A stretch of DNA of 64,000 bases from the NCBI RefSeq assembly GCF_013122565.1, contig NZ_CP053258.1, one strand, 5' to 3'. A program made the position numbers and the translations under genes. This document shows positions 46,749 to 59,286 of the stretch, piece by piece (position 1 is the first letter of the stretch; each line of letters begins with the position of its first letter). The notes beneath the pieces were generated by a model. That model saw only the letters and a list, made by a program, of their open reading frames with translations, did not search any database and was not told the origin of the DNA. Source of the DNA: Escherichia coli. GTDB taxonomy: Bacteria > Pseudomonadota > Gammaproteobacteria > Enterobacterales > Enterobacteriaceae.

Positions 46749-46956
46749 TAGGTTAAATCCGTTATTTCTGCTGTCTGCCAGAGTATCAAATATCATCGTG
46801 CTAATCAGCTTTAGCGCGACAATTTGACAGCGAGTGGCAACAGATCATGTCAGATGAAAATGAGCGGGTAGTCACATTTTCTTGCACTTTATTCCAGCCA
46901 GTTCATAAGTATTTCCGTAAAAAGAACAGCTATTTGAAACTCCTGAGGGTTTGCTG

Positions 46957-48123
46957 TTGAAACGCCGTCTTATTATTGCTGCTTCTTTGTTCGTTTTTAA
47001 CTTATCGTCTGGTTTTGCGGCGGAAAACGTTCCTTTTTCACCTCAGCCTCCAGAGATTCATGCCGGGTCCTGGGTATTGATGGATTACACCACCGGTCAG
47101 ATCCTCACCGCGGGTAATGAGCATCAACAGCGCAATCCCGCCAGCCTGACAAAGCTGATGACAGGCTATGTCGTGGATCGCGCTATCGATAGTCATCGCA
47201 TTACGCCAGACGATATTGTCACCGTGGGGCGCGATGCGTGGGCGAAAGATAATCCGGTGTTTGTCGGTTCTTCACTGATGTTTTTGAAAGAGGGCGATCG
47301 CGTATCGGTACGTGATTTAAGCCGTGGTTTAATTGTGGATTCCGGAAATGACGCTTGTGTTGCTCTGGCTGACTATATTGCCGGTGGGCAACGGCAGTTT
47401 GTTGAAATGATGAACAACTATGCCGAGAAGCTGCATCTCAAGGATACGCATTTTGAAACAGTGCATGGTCTGGATGCACCAGGCCAGCATAGCTCGGCTT
47501 ATGATTTAGCTGTGCTTTCTCGCGCTATCATCCACGGCGAGCCCGAGTTTTATCATATGTACAGTGAGAAAAGCCTCACCTGGAACGGTATCACCCAGCA
47601 AAACCGTAACGGGTTATTGTGGGATAAAACCATGAATGTTGACGGCCTGAAAACGGGTCATACTTCTGGTGCCGGGTTTAATCTCATTGCTTCGGCTGTC
47701 GATGGGCAGCGTCGTCTCATTGCAGTGGTAATGGGTGCTGACAGCGCAAAAGGTCGTGAGGAAGAGGCAAGAAAATTACTGCGTTGGGGGCAACAAAACT
47801 TTACTACGGTGCAAATTTTGCACCGTGGGAAAAAGGTCGGTACGGAACGCATCTGGTATGGCGATAAAGAAAATATCGCCCTGGGAACAGAACAAGAGTT
47901 CTGGATGGTACTACCGAAAGCCGAAATTCCACATATCAAAGCCAAATATACCCTTGATGGTAAAGAGCTCACCGCGCCAATTAGCGCCCATCAGCGGGTA
48001 GGGGAAATTGAACTTTATGACCGTGATAAACAGGTGGCGCACTGGCCGCTGGTTACCCTGGAATCTGTCGGGGAAGGCAGCATGTTTTCTCGCCTGAGTG
48101 ATTATTTCCACCATAAGGCCTGA
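46957..48123 (+). CDS. dacD: D-alanyl-D-alanine carboxypeptidase DacD (PBP6b)
   Basis: 388 aa from an apparent TTG start (MKRRLIIAASLFVFNLSSGFAAEN); active-site SxxK (ASLTK) and SGN motifs; gaggg Shine-Dalgarno upstream. Confidence 0.9.
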   Translation: MKRRLIIAASLFVFNLSSGFAAENVPFSPQPPEIHAGSWVLMDYTTGQILTAGNEHQQRNPASLTKLMTGYVVDRAIDSHRITPDDIVTVGRDAWAKDNPVFVGSSLMFLKEGDRVSVRDLSRGLIVDSGNDACVALADYIAGGQRQFVEMMNNYAEKLHLKDTHFETVHGLDAPGQHSSAYDLAVLSRAIIHGEPEFYHMYSEKSLTWNGITQQNRNGLLWDKTMNVDGLKTGHTSGAGFNLIASAVDGQRRLIAVVMGADSAKGREEEARKLLRWGQQNFTTVQILHRGKKVGTERIWYGDKENIALGTEQEFWMVLPKAEIPHIKAKYTLDGKELTAPISAHQRVGEIELYDRDKQVAHWPLVTLESVGEGSMFSRLSDYFHHKA

Positions 48124-48241
48124 CCTTTCTTTTGCAGCAGACTGGCAGGAGTGCGAGTCTGCTCGCATAATCAACACTCATTCCTTGTGGTTTTAACATT
48201 GCAACTACACTGTATATAAAAACAGTATTAATGGAGGCGTC

Positions 48242-48715
48242 ATGAACTACGAGATTAAGCAGGAAGATAAACGTACCGTTGCAGGTTTCCATCTCGTTGG
48301 CCCGTGGGAACAGACGGTAAAGAAAGGTTTTGAGCAGTTGATGATGTGGGTAGATAGCCAAAATATTGTGCCGAAGGAGTGGGTTGCTGTCTATTACGAC
48401 AATCCAGATGAAACACCCGCCGAAAAATTACGCTGCGACACCGTCGTGACGGTGCCGGGTTACTTTACGCTCCCCGAAAACAGTGAGGGCGTCATTCTGA
48501 CAGAAATTTCAGGTGGTCAGTATGCGGTGGCGGTAGCTCGTGTAGTCGGTGATGATTTTGCTAAACCCTGGTATCAGTTCTTTAATAGCCTCTTGCAGGA
48601 CAGTGCTTATGAAATGTTACCAAAGCCCTGCTTCGAGGTTTATTTGAACAATGGCGCGGAAGATGGGTACTGGGATATCGAAATGTATGTTGCGGTGCAG
48701 CCAAAACATCACTAA
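48242..48715 (+). CDS. sbmC: DNA gyrase inhibitor SbmC (GyrI)
   Basis: 157 aa starting [36 protein letters not shown]; synteny. Confidence 0.95.
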
Positions 48716-48913
48716 TTCATCTCAGGGCGGTGTGTTAACGCGATGACCACTCTTTTTTTTGAAAGCGAAAAGAGTAAGATGCGCCTTTCAATTTTTTCGC
48801 TCCTGCCGGGAAATTACACTGTTCCCGGTTTGTCCGTCGGATAATTCAGAGGCGCGCCTTCTGGCCGACAGATGAGTTATGAGCGCTTTTAATCTTCATT
48901 ACGGAGTTTCTGC

Positions 48914-49972
48914 GTGCGTGCCGATAAGTCATTATGCCCGTTTGAAATCCGGGTATACCGCCATTACCGCATTGTGCATGGTACTCGGGTCGCGCTGGCA
49001 TTCCTGCTCACTTTTCTCATTATCCGCCTGTTTACTATCCCGGAAAGCACCTGGCCGCTGGTCACCATGGTGGTGATTATGGGGCCAATCTCGTTCTGGG
49101 GTAACGTTGTCCCTCGCGCCTTCGAACGTATTGGCGGTACGGTGTTGGGTTCGATATTAGGTCTTATCGCTCTGCAACTGGAGTTAATCTCGTTACCGCT
49201 GATGTTAGTCTGGTGCGCGGCGGCTATGTTTCTTTGCGGTTGGCTGGCGCTGGGCAAGAAACCGTATCAAGGATTATTGATTGGGGTGACGCTGGCAATT
49301 GTTGTGGGTTCCCCGACAGGTGAAATTGATACGGCGTTATGGCGAAGCGGTGATGTGATCCTCGGCTCTTTACTGGCAATGTTGTTTACCGGTATCTGGC
49401 CACAACGGGCGTTCATCCACTGGCGCATTCAACTGGCGAAAAGTCTGACCGAGTATAATCGGGTCTATCAATCAGCATTCTCACCGAACTTACTCGAACG
49501 CCCACGTCTTGAAAGCCATCTACAAAAACTCCTGACCGATGCCGTGAAAATGCGTGGGCTGATTGCGCCCGCCAGCAAAGAAACTCGTATTCCAAAATCG
49601 ATATATGAAGGTATCCAGACCATTAACCGCAATCTGGTTTGTATGCTGGAGTTGCAAATCAATGCATACTGGGCCACGCGCCCCAGCCATTTCGTGTTAT
49701 TGAACGCGCAAAAACTTCGTGATACCCAGCACATGATGCAGCAAATACTGCTGAGCCTTGTTCATGCGTTGTACGAAGGTAATCCGCAGCCGGTTTTTGC
49801 CAATACGGAAAAATTGAACGATGCTGTGGAAGAGCTGCGTCAGTTGCTCAATAACCACCATGACCTTAAGGTTGTGGAAACACCAATCTATGGTTATGTG
49901 TGGCTGAACATGGAAACGGCACATCAGCTTGAGTTGCTATCGAATCTGATTTGCCGGGCCTTGCGCAAATAA
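48914..49972 (+). CDS. yeeA: Inner membrane protein YeeA (FUSC-like)
   Basis: 352 aa starting MRADKSL…FEIRVYRHYRIVHGTRVALAFLLTF; hydrophobic N-terminal half; synteny. Confidence 0.85.
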   Translation: MRADKSLCPFEIRVYRHYRIVHGTRVALAFLLTFLIIRLFTIPESTWPLVTMVVIMGPISFWGNVVPRAFERIGGTVLGSILGLIALQLELISLPLMLVWCAAAMFLCGWLALGKKPYQGLLIGVTLAIVVGSPTGEIDTALWRSGDVILGSLLAMLFTGIWPQRAFIHWRIQLAKSLTEYNRVYQSAFSPNLLERPRLESHLQKLLTDAVKMRGLIAPASKETRIPKSIYEGIQTINRNLVCMLELQINAYWATRPSHFVLLNAQKLRDTQHMMQQILLSLVHALYEGNPQPVFANTEKLNDAVEELRQLLNNHHDLKVVETPIYGYVWLNMETAHQLELLSNLICRALRK

Positions 49973-50143
49973 TTCCTGAACTTCAGAATCATCTTGCTGC
50001 TGCTTCGATTCAGCAAGGATAAAGGGTATGATAGTGAAAAGGGATAAAAGCATTGTCATCTGCGGCAGCTATGAGTAATGTTGGCCCTAACGAATAGCGG
50101 TTGCTTAAACGAATCCGACTCTCACATTATCAGGGGTATAAAA

Positions 50144-50473
50144 ATGGAAACTACCAAGCCTTCATTCCAGGACGTACTGGAATTTGTTCGTCTGTTCCGT
50201 CGTAAGAACAAACTGCAACGTGAAATTCAGGACGTTGAGAAAAAGATCCGTGACAACCAGAAGCGCGTCCTGCTGCTGGACAACCTGAGCGATTACATCA
50301 AGCCGGGGATGAGCGTTGAAGCAATCCAGGGCATCATCGCCAGCATGAAAGGTGACTATGAAGATCGCGTTGACGATTACATCATCAAAAATGCCGAGCT
50401 CTCCAAAGAACGCCGCGATATCTCCAAAAAGCTGAAAGCTATGGGCGAAATGAAAAACGGCGAAGCGAAGTAA
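50144..50473 (+). CDS. yeeX: UPF0265-family protein YeeX
   Basis: Track ORF 50078..50473; internal start [41 protein letters not shown] gives 109 aa. Confidence 0.85.
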
Positions 50474-50488
50474 TTCCTGTTTTATTCA

Positions 50489-50513
50489 ATGAGGGTTGCC
50501 CGGCAACCCTCAT
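50489..50513. terminator. Palindromic hairpin between convergent yeeX and pduV (putative shared terminator)
   Basis: atgagggttgcc-c-ggcaaccctcat, a 12-bp perfect inverted repeat, with T-rich sequence on the plus side and ttgaataaaac on the minus side. Confidence 0.5.
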
Positions 50514-50573
50514 TGCTCATTGATTCTTTTCTGTGTATCACAGTCATCATTCCCATCTGATAACCTATCGAAA

Positions 50574-51017
50574 TTAGCGACAGACATCTTCTGTATGCAG
50601 CAAGGAAAAAAGTTCTGTAACTCCATTGTTATTAACCGCACTGGTTACTAACACGTTCTGCGCTCCAGCTTCCCGTAACCAACATTTCACCAAAGATATT
50701 TGTTCCATGCTGGCTAAATCTGCTTTGGTTACTACTCCAATGACCGGGCGATTCATTGACGAGGTAAAGCCTGGCGAAAAAGGTGACCACGGTGCGTCCG
50801 CATTAAGCACCAGCGCGATAATGTCTGCTTCGCAGGCACTGACCAACAGTGCACTGTAGAGGCTGCGGTTTTCGAGGTATTCGCCTGGTGTATCAATGGT
50901 GGTCGGGGACCAGACGATTGCCTGCGTTTTCTGATAATGAATATTTTCGCCACGCAGACATTGCGTGAGTGACGTTTTTCCGCACTGGCTGGGGCCGATG
51001 AGCATCATACGTTGCAT
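50574..51017 (-). CDS. pduV: PduV, EutP/PduV-family small GTPase associated with the microcompartment
   Basis: 147 aa; P-loop [15 protein letters not shown]; last gene of the pdu operon in this window. Confidence 0.85.
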
Positions 51018-51021
51018 AATG

Positions 51022-51372
51022 TCAGGTCCGCGTAATGGGGCAGGCGGTAAAGCGCATCATTTCACCCAGCGTACGGGTAACCTGGCTAAGTGCATATTCA
51101 ATTGCAGAAACATCACCAGTCAGCACTACGGCACCGGTAAAACGATCAAGAAAACCGATCTCTACAGCGCCTGATTTTGTGGCGATATCGCATGCGATGA
51201 TAGATGCTTCGCTGGGGGTAATCGTCAGAATGCCAATAGCAGAAACGGTGTCTGGTAAACCCAATTTCTTAAACAGATCCTTCCCTGGATTGGCGATGAC
51301 ATGTGCCAGCGTGACCTGCTTACCAGGGACATATTCCTGAATCATCCGTTCAGTTGTGTGCTGAGTTGTCAT
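51022..51372 (-). CDS. pduU: PduU, microcompartment shell protein (circularly permuted BMC domain)
   Basis: 116 aa from the internal ATG overlapping the pduT stop (TAATG); …[32 protein letters not shown]… matches recalled PduU/EutS-type sequence. Confidence 0.85.
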
Positions 51373-51926
51373 TATCCCTCCACCATCTGACGCCACATGG
51401 CTTCATGTGGGCGGGCAATCACCGACCGATAGACCAACAAACCTTTTTCCCCCGCACGCTCGCTGGCGACAGAGACCGCGTTATTAACATCTGAAATATC
51501 GCCAGCAACCACCATGTAGCATTTACCGCCAATGCCAAAAGCCATATGCACGCGAACGAGAATGACATTCGCAGCTTTGACTGCACAATCGGCAGCGTCA
51601 ATGCAGGCGGCGACACTCCAGGTTTCGACTACGCCGACAGCCCGGTGCTGTTCAGCATGGTTAAGTCCGCTGATTGCAGAAAGGATGCTGGGATGAATAT
51701 TCGGCAGGACAAGACTGTCGACCAGCATTTCGCCAGCAAGGGAAGCGCCGCTGTTGATGGCCTGTTGCACCGCGCCCACATCGCCACCGAGCATCAGTAG
51801 AAATTTTCCGGGGCATAGCGTTTTGCTGACCAGTAACTCAACGTTGGCGCTTTTCAGCATGGCATCGCCGGTTTCCATCCCTTTCGCGATACTGCTAAGT
51901 TCTAAAATACCTACCGCTTTCGACAT
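51372..51926 (-). CDS. pduT: PduT, tandem-BMC-domain shell protein (Fe-S binding)
   Basis: 184 aa starting [32 protein letters not shown]; two BMC repeats. Confidence 0.9.
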
Positions 51927-51928
51927 GG

Positions 51929-53272
51929 TTAACCTCTCACAAGCGTAATCGCGTTTTCTGTCACATCGCTGACCATGCCATCAATGCTGGCATGAATGGG
52001 GGCACCTAATGTGCCGTGTGGAATTTGACCTACACATTGTCCATGAACGACGCGATCGCCTTTTTGTACACACGCAATTGCGCTGGCACCGATGTGTTGG
52101 CGTAACAATAACGTCACTTTTTCGGGCTGAGGCACCTGTTCAGACAATGGCGCATCCTGATACCACGGGGTTAAGCCCAGTCTGGTTACCAGCCGTTTTA
52201 CGGGAATCAGTCGATAATTTGCCATTGGATCTGCAGGATTTAAGGCACCTTCGTAGCGGAGATTTTGTGCGCGTAATTCCTGCTTAAGCAGGCGGTTTAT
52301 GCGCATTGGTGAAATTCCTACCGGACAGGCGATGCTGGCGCAGACGTTGCACTCCGAACAGGTGAGCGCCGTCAGTAACAGTTGTGGCGTAGCGAGCTGT
52401 TGGTAGTTAACCGCACGTACTAATAAATGGGGTGCCAGTTCGTGACCGATTAAATGACGAGGGCAGAGATCGGTACACAAGCGGCATTGCTCACAAACAG
52501 TTTTCGCGACGGCAAGTACGCTGCGGTCATTCTGCATTCGACGTTGGATCAGTGAATGAGAGTTGGGTAAAACCAGCAAGCCGCCAGTGGTTTTGCTGAC
52601 TGGTGTGTCGAGCGATGTGATCAAACTTCCCATCGTCGGCCCGCCATTGATAAAACCAGGAGCATCTACTGTTGCGCCGCCCGCCAGCGCCAGGACTTCA
52701 CGTAAAGACATGCCGATGGGGACGGTTACCGTTATTGGTTTCGCCACTGCACCATTAACGGTGAGTGTGCGGCGCGTCACTGGATACTGTTGCTCGACGG
52801 CTCTGGCAATATTAAGTACGGTTTGAACATTATTGACCACCACACCGACGCTAACGGGTAATGCAGCGGGTGGAACGCGGCGACCAGTTGCCATCCAGAT
52901 GGTCAGCACTTCGTCTCCTGCGGGGTAAACGTCGGGCAAAATATGCAGGCGGATATCCGGTGGTAACAGTGGTGTGAGTGCGTTTATTGCCAGTTGATAT
53001 TTCTCTTTCAGCGCGATGATTCCGCTACTGGCCCCGGTGGCTTTCATCGCATAGTGAACACCGCGAAGCAGGCGGCTGGCTTGCTGCGCCATTAACTGTT
53101 GATCCACTTTCAACATGGGTTCGCATTCCGCCGCATTCACCAGGAAAGTGTCAACACGCGCTTGTAGCTTAATATGGGTTGGAAAACCTGCGCCGCCAGC
53201 ACCCACGACACCTGCTGCCTGTACTCGCTCGCGGATAGTCTGGTCGTCGCAGGAGGTTAATCCGACGTTCAT
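51929..53272 (-). CDS. pduS: PduS, cobalamin reductase (RnfC/NuoF-like flavoprotein with 4Fe-4S clusters)
   Basis: 447 aa; two ferredoxin-like cysteine clusters ([25 protein letters not shown]). Confidence 0.9.
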
Positions 53273-54381
53273 AACAATTCCTCGAGCAGTTCTGCAATCG
53301 CGGAGGCATCAGCCGCATGCGGGTTGGTACGCAACGTTGCATCCGCCAGCGCCGCCTGAACCATATCTGGTATGCGTATTGACCATTCTGCTTTTTTTTC
53401 TTTCAGCGCATTGGCAAGAGTCGGCAGCGTACAGGTTGTTTTAAGCTGTTCAATATGTTGAATAAGTGCATTCAGGCTGGCGGTGTCATTGGCGTTGTCC
53501 GGGCATAAATGGCACGTTTTCGCCAGCCGGGCGTAGCGTTTGGCTGCGCGCGGATCGCCAGCATTAAAGCGGATAACCGCCGTGAGCAGGAGCGCATTCG
53601 CCAGGCCGTGCGGCAGATGAAACTGTCCGCCGAGTTGATGAGCAATTGCATGGTTTAAACCGAGTCCGGCCTGGCTAAAGGCCACTCCTGCAAGCGTCGA
53701 AGCATTATGCATTTTGCCACGGGTGGCAAGACAATCGCCTTTCTTCACTGCAGTGGGCAGGTATTGAAAAACAATTTGCACGGCTTTTTCGACCAGTGCA
53801 TCCGTGAAGTCGCTGGCGCGGGGAGAAACATAAGCTTCAAGCGCATGGGTTAAAACATCCATCCCGGTATTGGCCGTTATCGCCGGTGGCACGCTGACGA
53901 CCAGAGATGGATCAAGGATCGCGATATCCGGATAAAGTGCATTATCGAAAAGGGGATATTTAATCCCTTTCTCAGGATCGCTGATGACACAAGCACTGGT
54001 CACTTCGGAACCGGTACCGCTGGTGGTAGGAATGGCTACGCAGGTTTCAATTTCAATGCCACACTGGCGACCGAACCAGACAATCGCTTTTGCGGCGTCC
54101 AGGGCAGAACCGCCGCCAAAACCGATAACCACATCCGGGCGTAAAGTCTGCATTTGCGCAATGCCTTTCACCACGATCTGGATAGTTGGGTCAGGCGTTA
54201 TTTCGCTAAAAATACTGAGACGATTACTGTCGGGCAGCGCCTGATGCAACGTGTCAATGAGTGGTGAGCGTGCCAGAAAGGCGTCGCAAATAATCCAGAT
54301 GTGTTTATGAGAGAAACGGCTAAGTACCTTGAGACTTCCCGGTCCGCTGTATAAACGCGTCTGCAGTGAAAAAGTATTCAT
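53269..54381 (-). CDS. pduQ: PduQ, 1-propanol dehydrogenase (iron-containing alcohol dehydrogenase family)
   Basis: 370 aa; Fe-ADH motifs (…GGGSALDAAKAI…, metal-binding His residues). Confidence 0.9.
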   Translation of the reverse strand: MNTFSLQTRLYSGPGSLKVLSRFSHKHIWIICDAFLARSPLIDTLHQALPDSNRLSIFSEITPDPTIQIVVKGIAQMQTLRPDVVIGFGGGSALDAAKAIVWFGRQCGIEIETCVAIPTTSGTGSEVTSACVISDPEKGIKYPLFDNALYPDIAILDPSLVVSVPPAITANTGMDVLTHALEAYVSPRASDFTDALVEKAVQIVFQYLPTAVKKGDCLATRGKMHNASTLAGVAFSQAGLGLNHAIAHQLGGQFHLPHGLANALLLTAVIRFNAGDPRAAKRYARLAKTCHLCPDNANDTASLNALIQHIEQLKTTCTLPTLANALKEKKAEWSIRIPDMVQAALADATLRTNPHAADASAIAELLEELL

Positions 54382-54391
54382 TTCCGTTTCT

Positions 54392-55777
54392 CTAGCGAAT
54401 TGAAAAGCCGCTGGTTAACACGCAGCGTCGTGAGCGGGCAAAAGTCCGTGCTGACGTTGTCCCTTCTCCGGTCGGTGTTGCAATGGTAAAGGTCGTAAAG
54501 CCTTCGCCGCCGACGCCAATACCCGCCCAGGAGGGGCCGTTTTTGACAAAGATTGAGGTTTGCATAACGCGCGCAGCAAGGTTGAGCCGTGAGACGTTCT
54601 GCGAGTGCATAATTGCCGTGTGGTGCAAGCCGTCTTCCACTTTCAACGCCAGAGTGAGAGCGCTGTCAAAATCGTTGACCTTCACAATGGGCAGCATTGG
54701 CATCAGTTGTTCACAAGTAACCCAACTATCATCGGCGTCAACAACAGCAATCAGTAGGCGCGGCGCTTTTGCGGGCAAAGGGAGGCCCGCTGCTCCCAGC
54801 AAGGCTGATGGGCTTTTCCCAACCAGTTTTTTGTTGGTGCTACCGTCTGGCAGGCAAATTGCACGCAATTTCTCCGTTTGTTCACGGTTAAGAAGAAGTG
54901 CGCCAAAGCTTTGCATCTGCTGAATTAAATAATCTGCCACTGATGCCACGACAATCAGGCTTTTTTCAGCGATACACGGCAGGTTGTAATCAAAAGAAGC
55001 GCCGTTGATGATGTCCTCGGCGGCTTTCACAATATCAGCCGTTTCATCGACGATACACGGAGGGTTACCCGCTCCGGCACCAATCACTTTCTTGCCACTT
55101 TTCATTCCCATGGTGACGATCCCCGGACCGCCGGTAATCGCCAGAACGCTGATTTTAGGGTGCGCCATCATCTGTTCGGTGGCAGCAAAGGTCGGTTCAG
55201 ATACGGTAACGATCAGGTTATGAATGCCACTACAGCGAAACGCGATGTCTTCGATTGTGGTAATCAGTTTTAACGAAACGTATTTGGCTCCCGGGTGTGG
55301 ACTGAAGTAGACGCTATTACCTGCTGCCAGCATGCTGATGCTGTTGTTAATGATGGTTTCCGTGGGGTTGGTGCTTGGCGTGACCGAGCCAATAACCCCA
55401 AACGGAGAGTACTCAAACAAAACCATGCCACCATCACCGGTTAGTGCTGTGGTGGTTAAATCTTCAATTCCTGGCGTGTTATCAAGTGCCGCTTTGTTTT
55501 TTAGGTACTTATCTTCTTTATTTCCCATCCCCGTTTCTTTGGCGCTTTCTTCTGCCAGTTCGGTAAGGCGGGGCATTAATTCTTCGCGAATGGCGCTGAT
55601 AATGGCGCTACGGGTTTTAAGCGGGCACTGTTGAAAGCGTAAAAAGGCCTGGTGTGCTGCGCAGACCGCTTCATCGACAGTCTGGAAAATAGCGTTTCTT
55701 TGCGTTCGTGGTGTAGCGGGGACAAGTTGCTCACGCAGAATAATGCGGATCAGTGTTTCTAATTCAGAGTTATTCAT
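54392..55777 (-). CDS. pduP: PduP, CoA-acylating propionaldehyde dehydrogenase
   Basis: 461 aa starting MNNSELETLIRIIL…; aldehyde dehydrogenase catalytic Cys region (…NLPCIAEKSLIV…); close match to recalled Salmonella PduP. Confidence 0.92.
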   Translation of the reverse strand: MNNSELETLIRIILREQLVPATPRTQRNAIFQTVDEAVCAAHQAFLRFQQCPLKTRSAIISAIREELMPRLTELAEESAKETGMGNKEDKYLKNKAALDNTPGIEDLTTTALTGDGGMVLFEYSPFGVIGSVTPSTNPTETIINNSISMLAAGNSVYFSPHPGAKYVSLKLITTIEDIAFRCSGIHNLIVTVSEPTFAATEQMMAHPKISVLAITGGPGIVTMGMKSGKKVIGAGAGNPPCIVDETADIVKAAEDIINGASFDYNLPCIAEKSLIVVASVADYLIQQMQSFGALLLNREQTEKLRAICLPDGSTNKKLVGKSPSALLGAAGLPLPAKAPRLLIAVVDADDSWVTCEQLMPMLPIVKVNDFDSALTLALKVEDGLHHTAIMHSQNVSRLNLAARVMQTSIFVKNGPSWAGIGVGGEGFTTFTIATPTGEGTTSARTFARSRRCVLTSGFSIR

Positions 55778-56781
55778 TGGTTTACTCCCACGTTAATTGC
55801 CGCCATTGCGCTTTGGGCAATATCCATGTCTTGTTCAACGCTACCGCCGCTGATGCCAAGCCCGCCAAGCAATTTTCCGTCACGCCAGAGGGGGAAGCCG
55901 CCACCAAAAGTGACGACTTTTCCTTGCATATGGCTTTCGAGCCCGTAAAGCGGCGCGCCGGGTTGCACGGTATCAGCAAGCTTGTGGGTTGCCGTTTTCA
56001 TCGCCACGGCGGTCCAGGCTTTTTTCGGTGCCAGTTCACTGCTGACCAACAGGGCATCAGGCATCCGCCAGGTAACACTTTCTGTTCCGTTGGCATCAAC
56101 AATGCTGATGACAACGGGAATATGCAGTTCATCTGCGCGCATTGCCGCACTACGAATGAGTTGGTGAAGATCCTGAAAAGTGAGCGGCATTGTGCGTTCC
56201 TTCATTGCTGGTGTGTGGTTGGCTTCGTGATAACGTTTTGTGATTTCCTGAATTATCAGATTTTGATGAGCAACGTTGTCTTCCACGCGGGCGAGGGCAT
56301 ACAGGCAATCGGAAAGTCGGTTGATATAGTGCAGCAAAACATTCCGGACGGTGGTTTCCGTTGTCAGTTCAACCAGCCGTCTTTCAGCCCGTCGAGCCAC
56401 CGTGCGGGCGAAATGCATGCGGCTTGCGGCTTCACATCGACCAGGCAGAATGAAGCTGTGAACTGGGGGGACGGCGTTCATTGCACTATCGATCGCGTTT
56501 TCCAGCACGGCAATTTCTTCCGTACCGACGTAACGCTGCTGCGCTGACGGCTGTTCGCTTTCACTGGCGAGTTCGGCGCTAAACCAAAATATCTGTTGTT
56601 GAATGGCTTCCAGTAAGATGCGATGGCTTTCAATGGAGGTGGCGCAATAACACAGACTAAGTGTCGCGTTCAGTTCATCCAGCGTGCCATAGGTTTCGAC
56701 ACGTAGATGAGTTTTGCTTACGCGCTGTCCGGTAAATAAAGACGTACTTCCTGAATCACCTGTTCGGGTATAAATTGCCAT
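55774..56781 (-). CDS. pduO: PduO, ATP:cob(I)alamin adenosyltransferase with C-terminal domain of unknown function
   Basis: 335 aa starting MAIYTRTGDSGSTSLFTGQRVSKTHLRVETYGTLDELNA (PduO-type ATR signature). Confidence 0.92.
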   Translation of the reverse strand: MAIYTRTGDSGSTSLFTGQRVSKTHLRVETYGTLDELNATLSLCYCATSIESHRILLEAIQQQIFWFSAELASESEQPSAQQRYVGTEEIAVLENAIDSAMNAVPPVHSFILPGRCEAASRMHFARTVARRAERRLVELTTETTVRNVLLHYINRLSDCLYALARVEDNVAHQNLIIQEITKRYHEANHTPAMKERTMPLTFQDLHQLIRSAAMRADELHIPVVISIVDANGTESVTWRMPDALLVSSELAPKKAWTAVAMKTATHKLADTVQPGAPLYGLESHMQGKVVTFGGGFPLWRDGKLLGGLGISGGSVEQDMDIAQSAMAAINVGVNQ

Positions 56782-56792
56782 CTTTCAGCTCC

Positions 56793-57068
56793 TTAGCGCG
56801 AAAGCGTATCGACAATGCCGACCACTGCCAGGTCGATGGCCTCGTTAGGGCCGGAAAACACATGTCTGGCGCTGGAACCACTGCTGAGGAGTACCAACTC
56901 ACCAACGCCTGCGCCGACTGAATCAACGGCAACTTCGTCGCCGGTTAAAGGCGTGAGAGGCAGTTCGCCGTCAGCACTGACCCGGCGAACCAGCAGTAGT
57001 TTTTTCCCGATCAGAGAAGGTGATTTTTGCGTGGATACTACCGCGCCAGTGACTCGAGCCAGATGCAT
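56793..57068 (-). CDS. pduN: PduN, microcompartment vertex protein (EutN/CcmL family)
   Basis: 91 aa starting [30 protein letters not shown]. Confidence 0.9.
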
Positions 57069-57071
57069 AGG

Positions 57072-57563
57072 TTACTCCTGCCTGATTAACTGAATATTTC
57101 GGGTAATTGCCGCTTCACGAGCCAGTGCGGTCACACAACATTTCCGCTGTAACACCAGTATTCCAGAGCTTAACTGCGCAATATCGGCATAACTTAAAAG
57201 TCGATCACGATGAAGGTAGATCGGTTGCCCTTGCTCGTCGCACCAGCTTAGCGGTAGACGGGCGAGAGTCTTCAATTCAATGGCGTTCAGGAAATGATGC
57301 TGCAACGACAATTGAATGTGCATTCCCCAGGCTAACGCTTCGTGTATCTGGATTGCTGCTCGATCTGACGTTTCGTTCTCCGCAAGTTGTCGCAGCAGCG
57401 GCAGATCGACATATCGGATTTGTAATGACGCATACTGATGAACGCTCTCTTGAACGCTGGCGTCTCGCAGTTGAAAAACAGTCAGCACGAGTGTTTTTCC
57501 CGCACGTTGTTTAAGGCGAAAAACCACTTCGTCAACAATACGTTGCATCAGCATGTTATTCAT
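57072..57563 (-). CDS. pduM: PduM, microcompartment structural protein
   Basis: 163 aa; position between pduL and pduN; recalled PduM length. Confidence 0.8.
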   Translation of the reverse strand: MNNMLMQRIVDEVVFRLKQRAGKTLVLTVFQLRDASVQESVHQYASLQIRYVDLPLLRQLAENETSDRAAIQIHEALAWGMHIQLSLQHHFLNAIELKTLARLPLSWCDEQGQPIYLHRDRLLSYADIAQLSSGILVLQRKCCVTALAREAAITRNIQLIRQE

Positions 57564-58192
57564 GGCACTGACACCAGTGTGGCAAAAACGTCAGGGCTAT
57601 CAGCGCCTGCGGCGTTGGCCTCATCGGTATCAATATGCATTTCAAGACGCATATCCGGAGAGACGCGAACAGCGACGTTTTCGAATATCAGTCGTCGCTC
57701 ATCACCTTCAATGGAAACCGCCACTTTATCGCCATGCGTAACGCCATAAATCAGGGCATCCAGCGGAGACATATGAATATGCCGTTGCGCGACAATAACG
57801 CCAGATGTGATCTCCAGTTCCGCAAATGGGCTTATCAAACGAATCCCCGGAGTGCCGCTGAGATCGCCTGACATGCGTAGCGGGGCGGTGATCCCTAACG
57901 TTCTGGCGTCCGTACGGGAAATTTCCACCTGGCTTGCATTGCGTAGCGGCCCCAACAAGCGAACGTTGTGCAATTTACCTTTTGGTCCCTCCAACGTAAC
58001 AACCTGTTCAGCCGCGAATTGGCCAGGCTGCATTAACGGCTTTTTCTCGCTAATCGGTTGTTCAGGAAAAAGACGCAAATAATCCGCTGTTGAAAGATGA
58101 ATATGACGACTGGAAACACCCAGAGGGATAGGGCGCTCGCGCATCTCATCCAGAATCTGACTCACTGTTTCCTGCAAGGTTTGTTTATCCAC
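57560..58192 (-). CDS. pduL: PduL, phosphate propanoyltransferase
   Basis: 210 aa; starts MDKQTLQETVSQILDEMRERP… with a region …LGVSSRHIHLSTADYL… (PduL/EutD-type fold). Confidence 0.9.
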   Translation of the reverse strand: MDKQTLQETVSQILDEMRERPIPLGVSSRHIHLSTADYLRLFPEQPISEKKPLMQPGQFAAEQVVTLEGPKGKLHNVRLLGPLRNASQVEISRTDARTLGITAPLRMSGDLSGTPGIRLISPFAELEITSGVIVAQRHIHMSPLDALIYGVTHGDKVAVSIEGDERRLIFENVAVRVSPDMRLEMHIDTDEANAAGADSPDVFATLVSVP

Positions 58193-58194
58193 TG

Positions 58195-58617
58195 CTACTC
58201 CCCTCGCTTATTGGCGTGCAGGCAAAGTGAGCGGGGCTCGCCTTTTTGCCGCTGACATGCCGGGTCAAGACACAAATTACAACTGATAATCTCTGAGGTG
58301 ACGGTTGTTGCTGGTGTTTCGCTTGTTTCAACCGTCACAGTCAATGCTTCAGTTGTGTGGGGCAGGATGCCCTCTCCCGGGCGGGCAATCACTTTGTGTG
58401 CGACAAGGCCATTTCGCTGTCCGGCGAAACTGGCTCCCGTCGCGATCGCCGCATTAACCGAGGCGACGTCACCGTTGATTTTGATGAGCGTCCAGCCTGA
58501 GCCATTGGTCTTCTCAAGGCCAACCAGCGTGATGGACGCGGCTTTTGCCATAGCGTCTGCGCAACTGATGGCGAGTGCCAGACCACTGACTTCAAGTAAT
58601 CCCAGTGATTGCTTCAC
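58195..58617 (-). CDS. pduK: PduK, BMC-domain shell protein with C-terminal Cys-rich extension
   Basis: 140 aa starting MKQSLGLLEVSGLALAISCADAMAKAASITLVGLEK; C-terminal CNLCLDPACQRQ motif. Confidence 0.88.
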   Translation of the reverse strand: MKQSLGLLEVSGLALAISCADAMAKAASITLVGLEKTNGSGWTLIKINGDVASVNAAIATGASFAGQRNGLVAHKVIARPGEGILPHTTEALTVTVETSETPATTVTSEIISCNLCLDPACQRQKGEPRSLCLHANKRGE

Positions 58618-58640
58618 GCTGTGCTCCTTAGCAAATGGGG

Positions 58641-58916
58641 TTATGCCGATTTAGGTAAAATAGCCTCAACATCACTGTGTGGACGCGGGATGACATGGCA
58701 GGATTTCACTTCGCCAACGGCGCTTGCCGCAGCGCTACCCGCATCAACGGCGGCCTTTACTGCGCCAACATCACCGCGGACCATAACCGTAATCAGACCC
58801 GAACCAATCTTTTCATAGCCAACCAGCTGCACGTTGGCGGATTTAACCATGGCATCTGCAGCTTCAATTGCGCCAACTAACCCTTTTGTTTCAACCAGTC
58901 CTAGTGCGTTGTTCAT
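58641..58916 (-). CDS. pduJ: PduJ, major hexameric BMC shell protein
   Basis: 91 aa starting [41 protein letters not shown] (canonical BMC-H). Confidence 0.92.
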
Positions 58917-58935
58917 ACAGCGTTTCTCCTGTGGA

Positions 58936-59286
58936 TTATGAGTGGCATTCCCTGAAGGGAATGCCTTTTACCAGGCGGGCAGCGTTATTGCCGATGCTGC
59001 GCCGGGCATGGTTATCTTGTTGATACATCAGCGTAAACAGTGGCGCTGATGCCGGTAAGTTTTTGTAATGCACAATCAGCTTTTCCCGGTCGCAGGCTAT
59101 GCCAACCAACAGGGGGGACTGACGAGCAGCCTGCCAGGCGCTATCGATGACTTCACCTGACGGGATATGTTGAATGCGAAAGGGGATGCCTTCCTCTTCA
59201 ATGCCAAGAAGCACCTCATTCCATGTACTGATACAGTCACCTATTTCCGTAACGACAATAGCGGGCGTATGTTCTTTACTTTCCAT
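58936..59286 (-). CDS. pduH: PduH, diol dehydratase reactivase small subunit
   Basis: 116 aa; follows pduG with an 11-nt overlap. Confidence 0.85.

Follow-up and report, generated by a model that had tools for sequence, protein, structure and literature searches.

The window, a stretch of 64,000 nucleotides of Escherichia coli DNA, carries on one side the his operon, sbcB, dacD, sbmC, yeeA and tmaR (yeeX), in this order, and on the other side a pdu operon that converges on tmaR. The tmaR gene, which encodes a DUF496 PTS regulator, occupies 50144..50473 on the + strand, with its stop codon (TAA) at 50471-50473. Comparison with the TmaR/DUF496 equivalog of NCBIfam gave 188-198 bits for tmaR, and the gene bears the same name in the matching annotated E. 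coli genomes. The terminal gene of the pdu operon is pduV (50574..51017, - strand; stop codon at 50574-50576), which encodes a EutP/PduV small GTPase-like protein of 147 aa. The protein matches the NCBIfam family TIGR02528 with 187 bits against a cut-off of 138 and is 76-79% identical to the PduV proteins of Citrobacter and Salmonella. The C-terminus of PduV reads TEDVCR in the window and EPSCLTK in these relatives, in which the final pduV codons overlap the pduW start. The intergenic spacer between the two stop codons, assigned to neither strand, measures exactly 100 bp (50474..50573). Direct reading of the sequence and the ORF list concur on these positions, as given in the original prediction (pduV stop at 50574, convergent yeeX stop at 50473, about 100 bp between them).

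The remaining pdu genes in the window, pduU, T, S, Q, P, O, N, M, L, K, J, H, G, E, D and C, extend from 51022 to 63993 on the - strand as ORFs of normal length. Their names were taken from an annotated pdu-positive E. coli genome with 99% identity across the junction. The B12-dependent diol dehydratase PduCDE and the reactivase PduGH are represented by ORFs of 554, 222, 172, 610 and 116 aa at 58936-63993. For the shell proteins (PduA/B/J/K/N/T/U) and for PduL, PduP, PduQ, PduO and PduS as core enzymes, the ORFs from pduK to pduU have normal lengths; pduA and pduB are positioned past the window end. In the Salmonella-type arrangement pduW directly follows pduV and pduX is the final gene, whereas here tmaR comes 100 bp past pduV and pduX is absent from the window. 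A tblastn search of the whole 64-kb window with Salmonella PduW and PduX as queries (E <= 1e-5) gave no homolog of either protein, in agreement with the predicted absence of both genes before yeeX. By every core criterion, the operon in the window is a Pdu microcompartment operon, minus the two terminal genes and the adjacent cbi genes of the Salmonella form.

The spacer contains a perfect inverted repeat at 50487..50515, on no particular strand, whose arms CAATGAGGGTTGCC (50487-50500) and GGCAACCCTCATTG (50502-50515) are separated by one base. The repeat had been described as a perfect 12-bp palindrome; it is indeed perfect, but it is an inverted repeat with 14-nt arms around a 1-nt centre. 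The folding energy of the RNA hairpin is -24.8 kcal/mol (z = -5.2 vs shuffles). A T-rich tract, TTCTTTTCT, is located at 50524..50532 on the + strand, 8 nt past the hairpin on the tmaR strand and behind a duplicated CTCATTG, and may take part in termination. On the - strand the tail is A-rich. The hairpin is probably a transcription terminator common to tmaR and the pdu operon. A simple promoter/terminator scan of the spacer did not call the hairpin, because the T-run does not immediately follow the stem, and called nothing else there. The tandem duplication CTCATTG CTCATTG at the 3' foot of the hairpin (50508-50523) permits an alternative pairing with 50486-50493 and moves the T-rich tract 8 nt off the stem. 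A hidden small RNA gene in the spacer was considered and is not supported, as both the promoter/terminator scan and a comparison of the spacer with Rfam, in which no family matched, were empty.

Comparisons with Salmonella and Citrobacter showed what occupies this site in the relatives. S. enterica subsp. diarizonae carries pduT, pduU, pduV (146 aa), pduW (404 aa) and pduX (300 aa), with the pduW start overlapping the pduV stop, and in subsp. arizonae pduV likewise precedes pduW (404 aa) and pduX (300 aa). The convergent yeeX/tmaR followed by yeeA, sbmC and dacD lies downstream of pduX in both subspecies. The Salmonella order pduV-pduW-pduX and then yeeX, as given in the original prediction, is therefore right. 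The Salmonella pduW product belongs to the NCBIfam equivalog NF009063, an acetate/propionate-family kinase, and the pduX product gives only weak GHMP-kinase-type matches in NCBIfam. The PDU1A-type pduA-X operons of Salmonella enterica and Citrobacter freundii resemble the E. coli operon in their site beside tmaR-yeeA-sbmC-dacD, in the order from pduA to pduV, in the presence of pocR and pduF upstream and in the identity of PduU and PduV (76-92%). They differ in that E. coli lacks pduW (propionate kinase) and pduX (L-threonine kinase), has a changed PduV C-terminus, and retains a 145-aa remnant where cbiA-P adjoin pdu in Salmonella and Citrobacter. The relatives have ~2.2 kb of pduW and pduX where the window has the 100-bp spacer. 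The hairpins of Citrobacter and Salmonella hold the pduX stop codon in their left arm and lie 10-15 nt from the tmaR stop, compared with 13 nt in the window. Their stem base (CAGTGAG...CTCACTG) is similar to that of the window (CAATGAG...CTCATTG), a similarity that is short and not significant by itself; the proposed homology of the hairpins rests on position together with the stem base.

An alignment scan for PduV across one genome per bacterial species returned 80 loci, which were screened by tblastn for PduU, PduV, PduW, PduX, TmaR and YeeA. Neither PduW nor PduX was detected at the four Escherichia loci (two divergent 'E. coli' lineages, E. whittamii and E. albertii), where tmaR-yeeA adjoins 108-116 bp past pduV. 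The spacer, hairpin included, can be aligned across the E. coli of the window, K-12, the divergent 'E. coli', E. whittamii and E. albertii, and the E. whittamii stem shows compensatory changes in this alignment. At the loci of 53 other gammaproteobacterial species, including Citrobacter, Salmonella, Klebsiella, Phytobacter, Kosakonia, Yersinia, Hafnia, Brenneria, Mangrovibacter, Aeromonas and Tolumonas, PduW directly follows PduV in every case (53/53) and PduX is present in 52/53. The sole gammaproteobacterial locus outside Escherichia that has PduW and no PduX detectable within 8 kb downstream of pduV is that of Enterobacteriaceae bacterium RIT691. In Citrobacter, Salmonella, Pseudocitrobacter, Phytobacter, Intestinirhabdus and Entomohabitans, tmaR-yeeA adjoins the pdu operon convergently after pduV-pduW-pduX. 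The Firmicute PduV loci in the scan have no adjacent PduW or PduX.

The spread of the short junction within the species was examined with a 1,323-bp query (tmaR, spacer, pduV and pduU) against 5,426 complete E. coli genomes. The query matched 5,417 of these at 95-99% identity, all 5,417 with tmaR, and the matches cover >= 80% of the query in 640 genomes, in which the junction is intact into pduU. Among 30 evenly sampled rows, 29 extend at least into the 3' part of pduV. Nearly all the remaining matches end at query base 679 (window position 50756), leaving tmaR, the spacer and the last ~60 pduV codons. This retained 3' part of pduV (50574..50756, - strand) stands beside tmaR in most pdu-negative E. 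coli and corresponds to the K-12 pseudogene yoeF. In K-12 MG1655, yoeF is separated from tmaR by 100 bp and borders directly on the cryptic prophage CP4-44, and tblastn with PduV showed 88% identity over 60 aa; the arrangement in O157:H7 is the same. The 100-bp spacer, the hairpin and the 3' end of pduV in K-12 are all as in the window, whereas everything upstream of window position 50756 is replaced by CP4-44 in K-12 and retained as a full operon in the window. The absence of pduW and pduX was thus misjudged in scale when it was ascribed to this lineage: it is standard for E. coli, extends to E. whittamii and E. albertii and is seen in the K-12 remnant, and the E. coli reference genomes also lack both genes at this junction, which the original prediction had itself named as grounds for its refutation. 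The pdu operon that ends with pduV is the normal form across the E. coli/E. albertii group and is ordinary there.

The breakpoint inside pduV at 50756/50757 is shared by most pdu-negative E. coli, with CP4-44-type prophage or transposase remnants beyond it; such replacement was seen in K-12 (yoeF/yoeD) and O157:H7. A single breakpoint suggests one ancient replacement event that later spread through the species. Another pdu-negative form is found in NZ_CM196106.1 (4497-5131), in which the pduV 3' fragment runs straight into the cbi remnant and cobUST; here pduA-V', pduF and pocR are cleanly deleted, and no prophage is present.

The region of ~58 bp from the pduV stop to the hairpin was searched for relics of pduW and pduX. 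The E. albertii spacer contains an exact 15-mer, GAAGAGTTAATGATC, which corresponds to the EELMI codons near the 3' end of the Salmonella and E. fergusonii pduW. None of 100-200 shuffles was as good, and a further test gave p = 0.004; among the local, ungapped profile and spliced alignments compared with shuffles, this is the only significant relic signal. The E. coli spacer yielded no robust pduW or pduX remnant, with most local, profile and spliced alignments no better than shuffles. The homologous E. coli segment has its weak best match at the same place in pduW, and the 3' part of the C. amalonaticus pduX fits it too; as the segment can be matched to either gene, we make no claim on the exact breakpoints or the number of deletion events. 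A search with nhmmer, using a profile of 21 Citrobacter and Salmonella pduW-pduX regions, gave no matches in the Escherichia spacers, which are too short as targets. MAFFT aligned the spacer with the first 50 nt of pduW, but this apparent match failed testing.

The identities of the pdu genes and of their flanks (dacD, sbmC and yeeA) were compared at the nucleotide level. Relative to the window they are ~88-93% for the divergent 'E. coli' lineage, ~83-93% for E. whittamii, 86-92% for E. albertii and ~70-81% for Citrobacter and Salmonella. As the pdu genes and the flanks diverge in parallel in every comparison, the operon appears to have descended vertically at this site rather than to have been imported recently. 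We propose that the common ancestor with Citrobacter and Salmonella carried pduV-pduW-pduX at the same site, facing tmaR (yeeX), and that ~2.2 kb with pduW and pduX would have been deleted in place in the line from which E. coli, E. whittamii and E. albertii descend. The deletion would have left behind the end of pduV and ~58 bp of degraded sequence, together with the hairpin originally located at the pduX end. Sequence comparisons support a deletion in place well, on the grounds of synteny, parallel divergence, the hairpin and the E. fergusonii locus described below. We regard as very probable the full explanation, in which pdu is inherited vertically, pduW and pduX were deleted in situ long ago, and the losses would be tolerated because the cbi genes are gone and AckA and TdcD would serve instead. 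Within it, the gene content, its distribution over genomes, the common site and the parallel divergence are observations, and we infer how the deletion came about, why each gene was lost and that other kinases substitute for PduW. The parallel divergence (window 46951-56781) fits poorly with the long-standing view that Salmonella reacquired cob/pdu by transfer once it had separated from E. coli.

Of the two origins first put forward for the short junction, a shorter island or a deletion, the evidence thus favours the second. For the first, Escherichia would never have had pduW and pduX, and a shorter pduA-V island gained horizontally would have landed beside tmaR by chance. Microcompartment loci of this kind exist: PDU1B is a recognised subtype of the pdu locus in the Axen-Kerfeld BMC taxonomy, defined partly by the absence of PduW (PMC4207490), and its likeness to the Escherichia locus is one of gene content only. 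The Firmicute loci without adjacent PduW and PduX, and the lack of a statistically solid remnant in the E. coli spacer, could be read in the same way. However, Citrobacter, Salmonella and Phytobacter carry pduW-pduX at the identical insertion site, the nearest PduV relatives outside Escherichia all have pduW, and the pdu genes co-diverge with their flanks. In addition, the hairpin of the window occupies the position of the hairpin at the pduX end, pduW is present at this junction in E. fergusonii, and E. albertii retains the 15-mer pduW relic. A horizontal gain of a shorter island is therefore improbable.

A relocation of pduW and pduX to another part of the E. coli genome, which could have escaped a search of the genome collection at the DNA level if the copies were very divergent, is less probable still. 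Distant blastn with Citrobacter pduW and pduX DNA against the 5,426 E. coli genomes gave no match to pduX and a match to pduW in a single genome, where it belongs to a pdu island distinct from this one, flanked by IS elements, that has pduW and no pduX. Published protein searches gave only TdcD, 44% identical to PduW, in K-12 and in the pdu-positive Crohn's isolate ZvL2 (PMC7360682), and no PduW counterpart was found in E. coli (PMC3475010). The single genome (1/5,426) with pduW-like DNA is that of E. coli strain 48 from deer, whose island is of a second type, with a PduV 74% identical to that of the window, pduW present, pduX absent and fragments of IS66, IS21 and IS4 on its flanks. A deletion confined to this strain, or an error of assembly, can be set aside, given the identical intact junction in 640 complete genomes, the remnant in thousands more and the same state in other Escherichia species.

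The E. fergusonii-type locus, assigned to this species from the NCBI name of its PduV, has pduV-pduW, then a similar hairpin and then tmaR, without pduX. Its PduW has 404 aa and matches NF009063 at 815 bits. The locus shows that pduW and pduX can be lost separately at this junction. The site is the same as in the E. coli of the window, pduX is absent from both and cbi is cut to a homologous remnant in both, whereas E. fergusonii keeps pduW and has no cobUST at the site. The pdu genes and yeeA/sbmC of E. fergusonii are 71-82% identical to those of E. coli (window 46951-56781), as distant as those of Citrobacter. The plaP gene near the locus is ~96% identical to those of the divergent 'E. coli' lineage E69 and E. 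albertii. This contrast suggests an old recombinational replacement of the region in one lineage. Since the whole region, pdu and flanks, is as divergent as that of Citrobacter, E. fergusonii may have lost pduX independently, and it was rejected as a proven strict evolutionary intermediate. Several other features were observed at this locus: dacD is missing between sbmC and sbcB, pocR is followed by the cbi remnant and then directly by ldtA with no cobUST, and a glycyl-radical (choline-type) microcompartment cluster adjoins.

The surroundings of the operon were followed in the annotated pdu-positive E. coli genome that matches the window. This genome contains pduA-pduV, pduF, pocR, a cobalamin riboswitch, a 438-nt remnant annotated as a 'cobalamin biosynthesis protein' and cobUST, and cbiA-P, pduW and pduX are all absent from it. 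No complete cbi/cob operon is adjacent to pdu in this genome; the corresponding region lies outside the window. The remnant, between the cobalamin riboswitch and cobUST, is an ORF of 145 aa with weak similarity to the CbiG N-terminus, and the E. fergusonii remnant is homologous to it with 49% identity. PduX phosphorylates L-threonine and feeds CobD and CbiB for the formation of adenosylcobinamide-phosphate, whereby it provides the aminopropanol-phosphate linker of B12; of these pathways, E. coli possesses the nucleotide-loop salvage route through CobU/T/S/C alone (PMC6249242). Escherichia would have lost the cbi genes needed for de novo B12 synthesis, and PduX would then have been left without a pathway to serve. 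A likely reason for the dispensability of pduX, one missed in the original prediction, would thus be the loss of the cbi de novo B12 pathway; both pdu-positive E. coli and E. fergusonii are without the cbi pathway and without pduX.

Salmonella has three enzymes of the acetokinase family, PduW, AckA and TdcD. Palacios et al. reportedly found in 2003 that Ack can stand in for PduW in Salmonella. In pdu-positive E. coli, AckA and TdcD may replace PduW: propionyl-phosphate would be converted to propionate and ATP by these housekeeping enzymes, whose activity PduW (propionate kinase) would duplicate. The reliance on housekeeping kinases suggested at the outset is in line with published work. The pdu gene table of LF82 stops at pduV, and the operon is expressed and induced by bile salts (PMC6379400); reviews state that AIEC turn 1,2-propanediol into propionate (PMC9904308). 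That E. coli lacks PduW has already been published, and the K-12 reference genome already contains the pduV remnant next to tmaR; only the ordered picture of loss across Escherichia is mildly new.

This ordered picture is a stepwise reduction of an inherited cob/pdu supercluster, in which cbi would be lost before pduX (the E. fergusonii state), and pduW after it (the stage of E. coli, E. whittamii and E. albertii); most E. coli would in the end have lost the entire operon. We put it forward tentatively, as an order that is possible and slightly doubtful. If true, pduA-V of E. coli would be a natural minimal operon, PduX would matter for de novo B12 synthesis only and PduW would be fully replaceable. 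The parallel divergence would then favour the presence of pdu at this site in the ancestor of Escherichia, Citrobacter and Salmonella rather than a regain by Salmonella only. The comparative pattern makes a tidy case of accessory-gene loss once the partner pathway is gone. Beyond annotation the result carries little weight: an operon ending with pduV is what E. coli normally has rather than a defect, and pdu-positive E. coli, Crohn's-associated strains among them, ought not to be classed as 'incomplete'. Metabolic models of pdu-positive E. coli should route propionyl-phosphate through AckA/TdcD and have B12 or cobinamide supplied externally.

A further observation concerns the E. albertii type strain, in which pduO is split into two ORFs (237 and 96 aa), pduQ is read as 409 aa and PduV is shortened to 143 aa. 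The pdu operon of this strain may be decaying.
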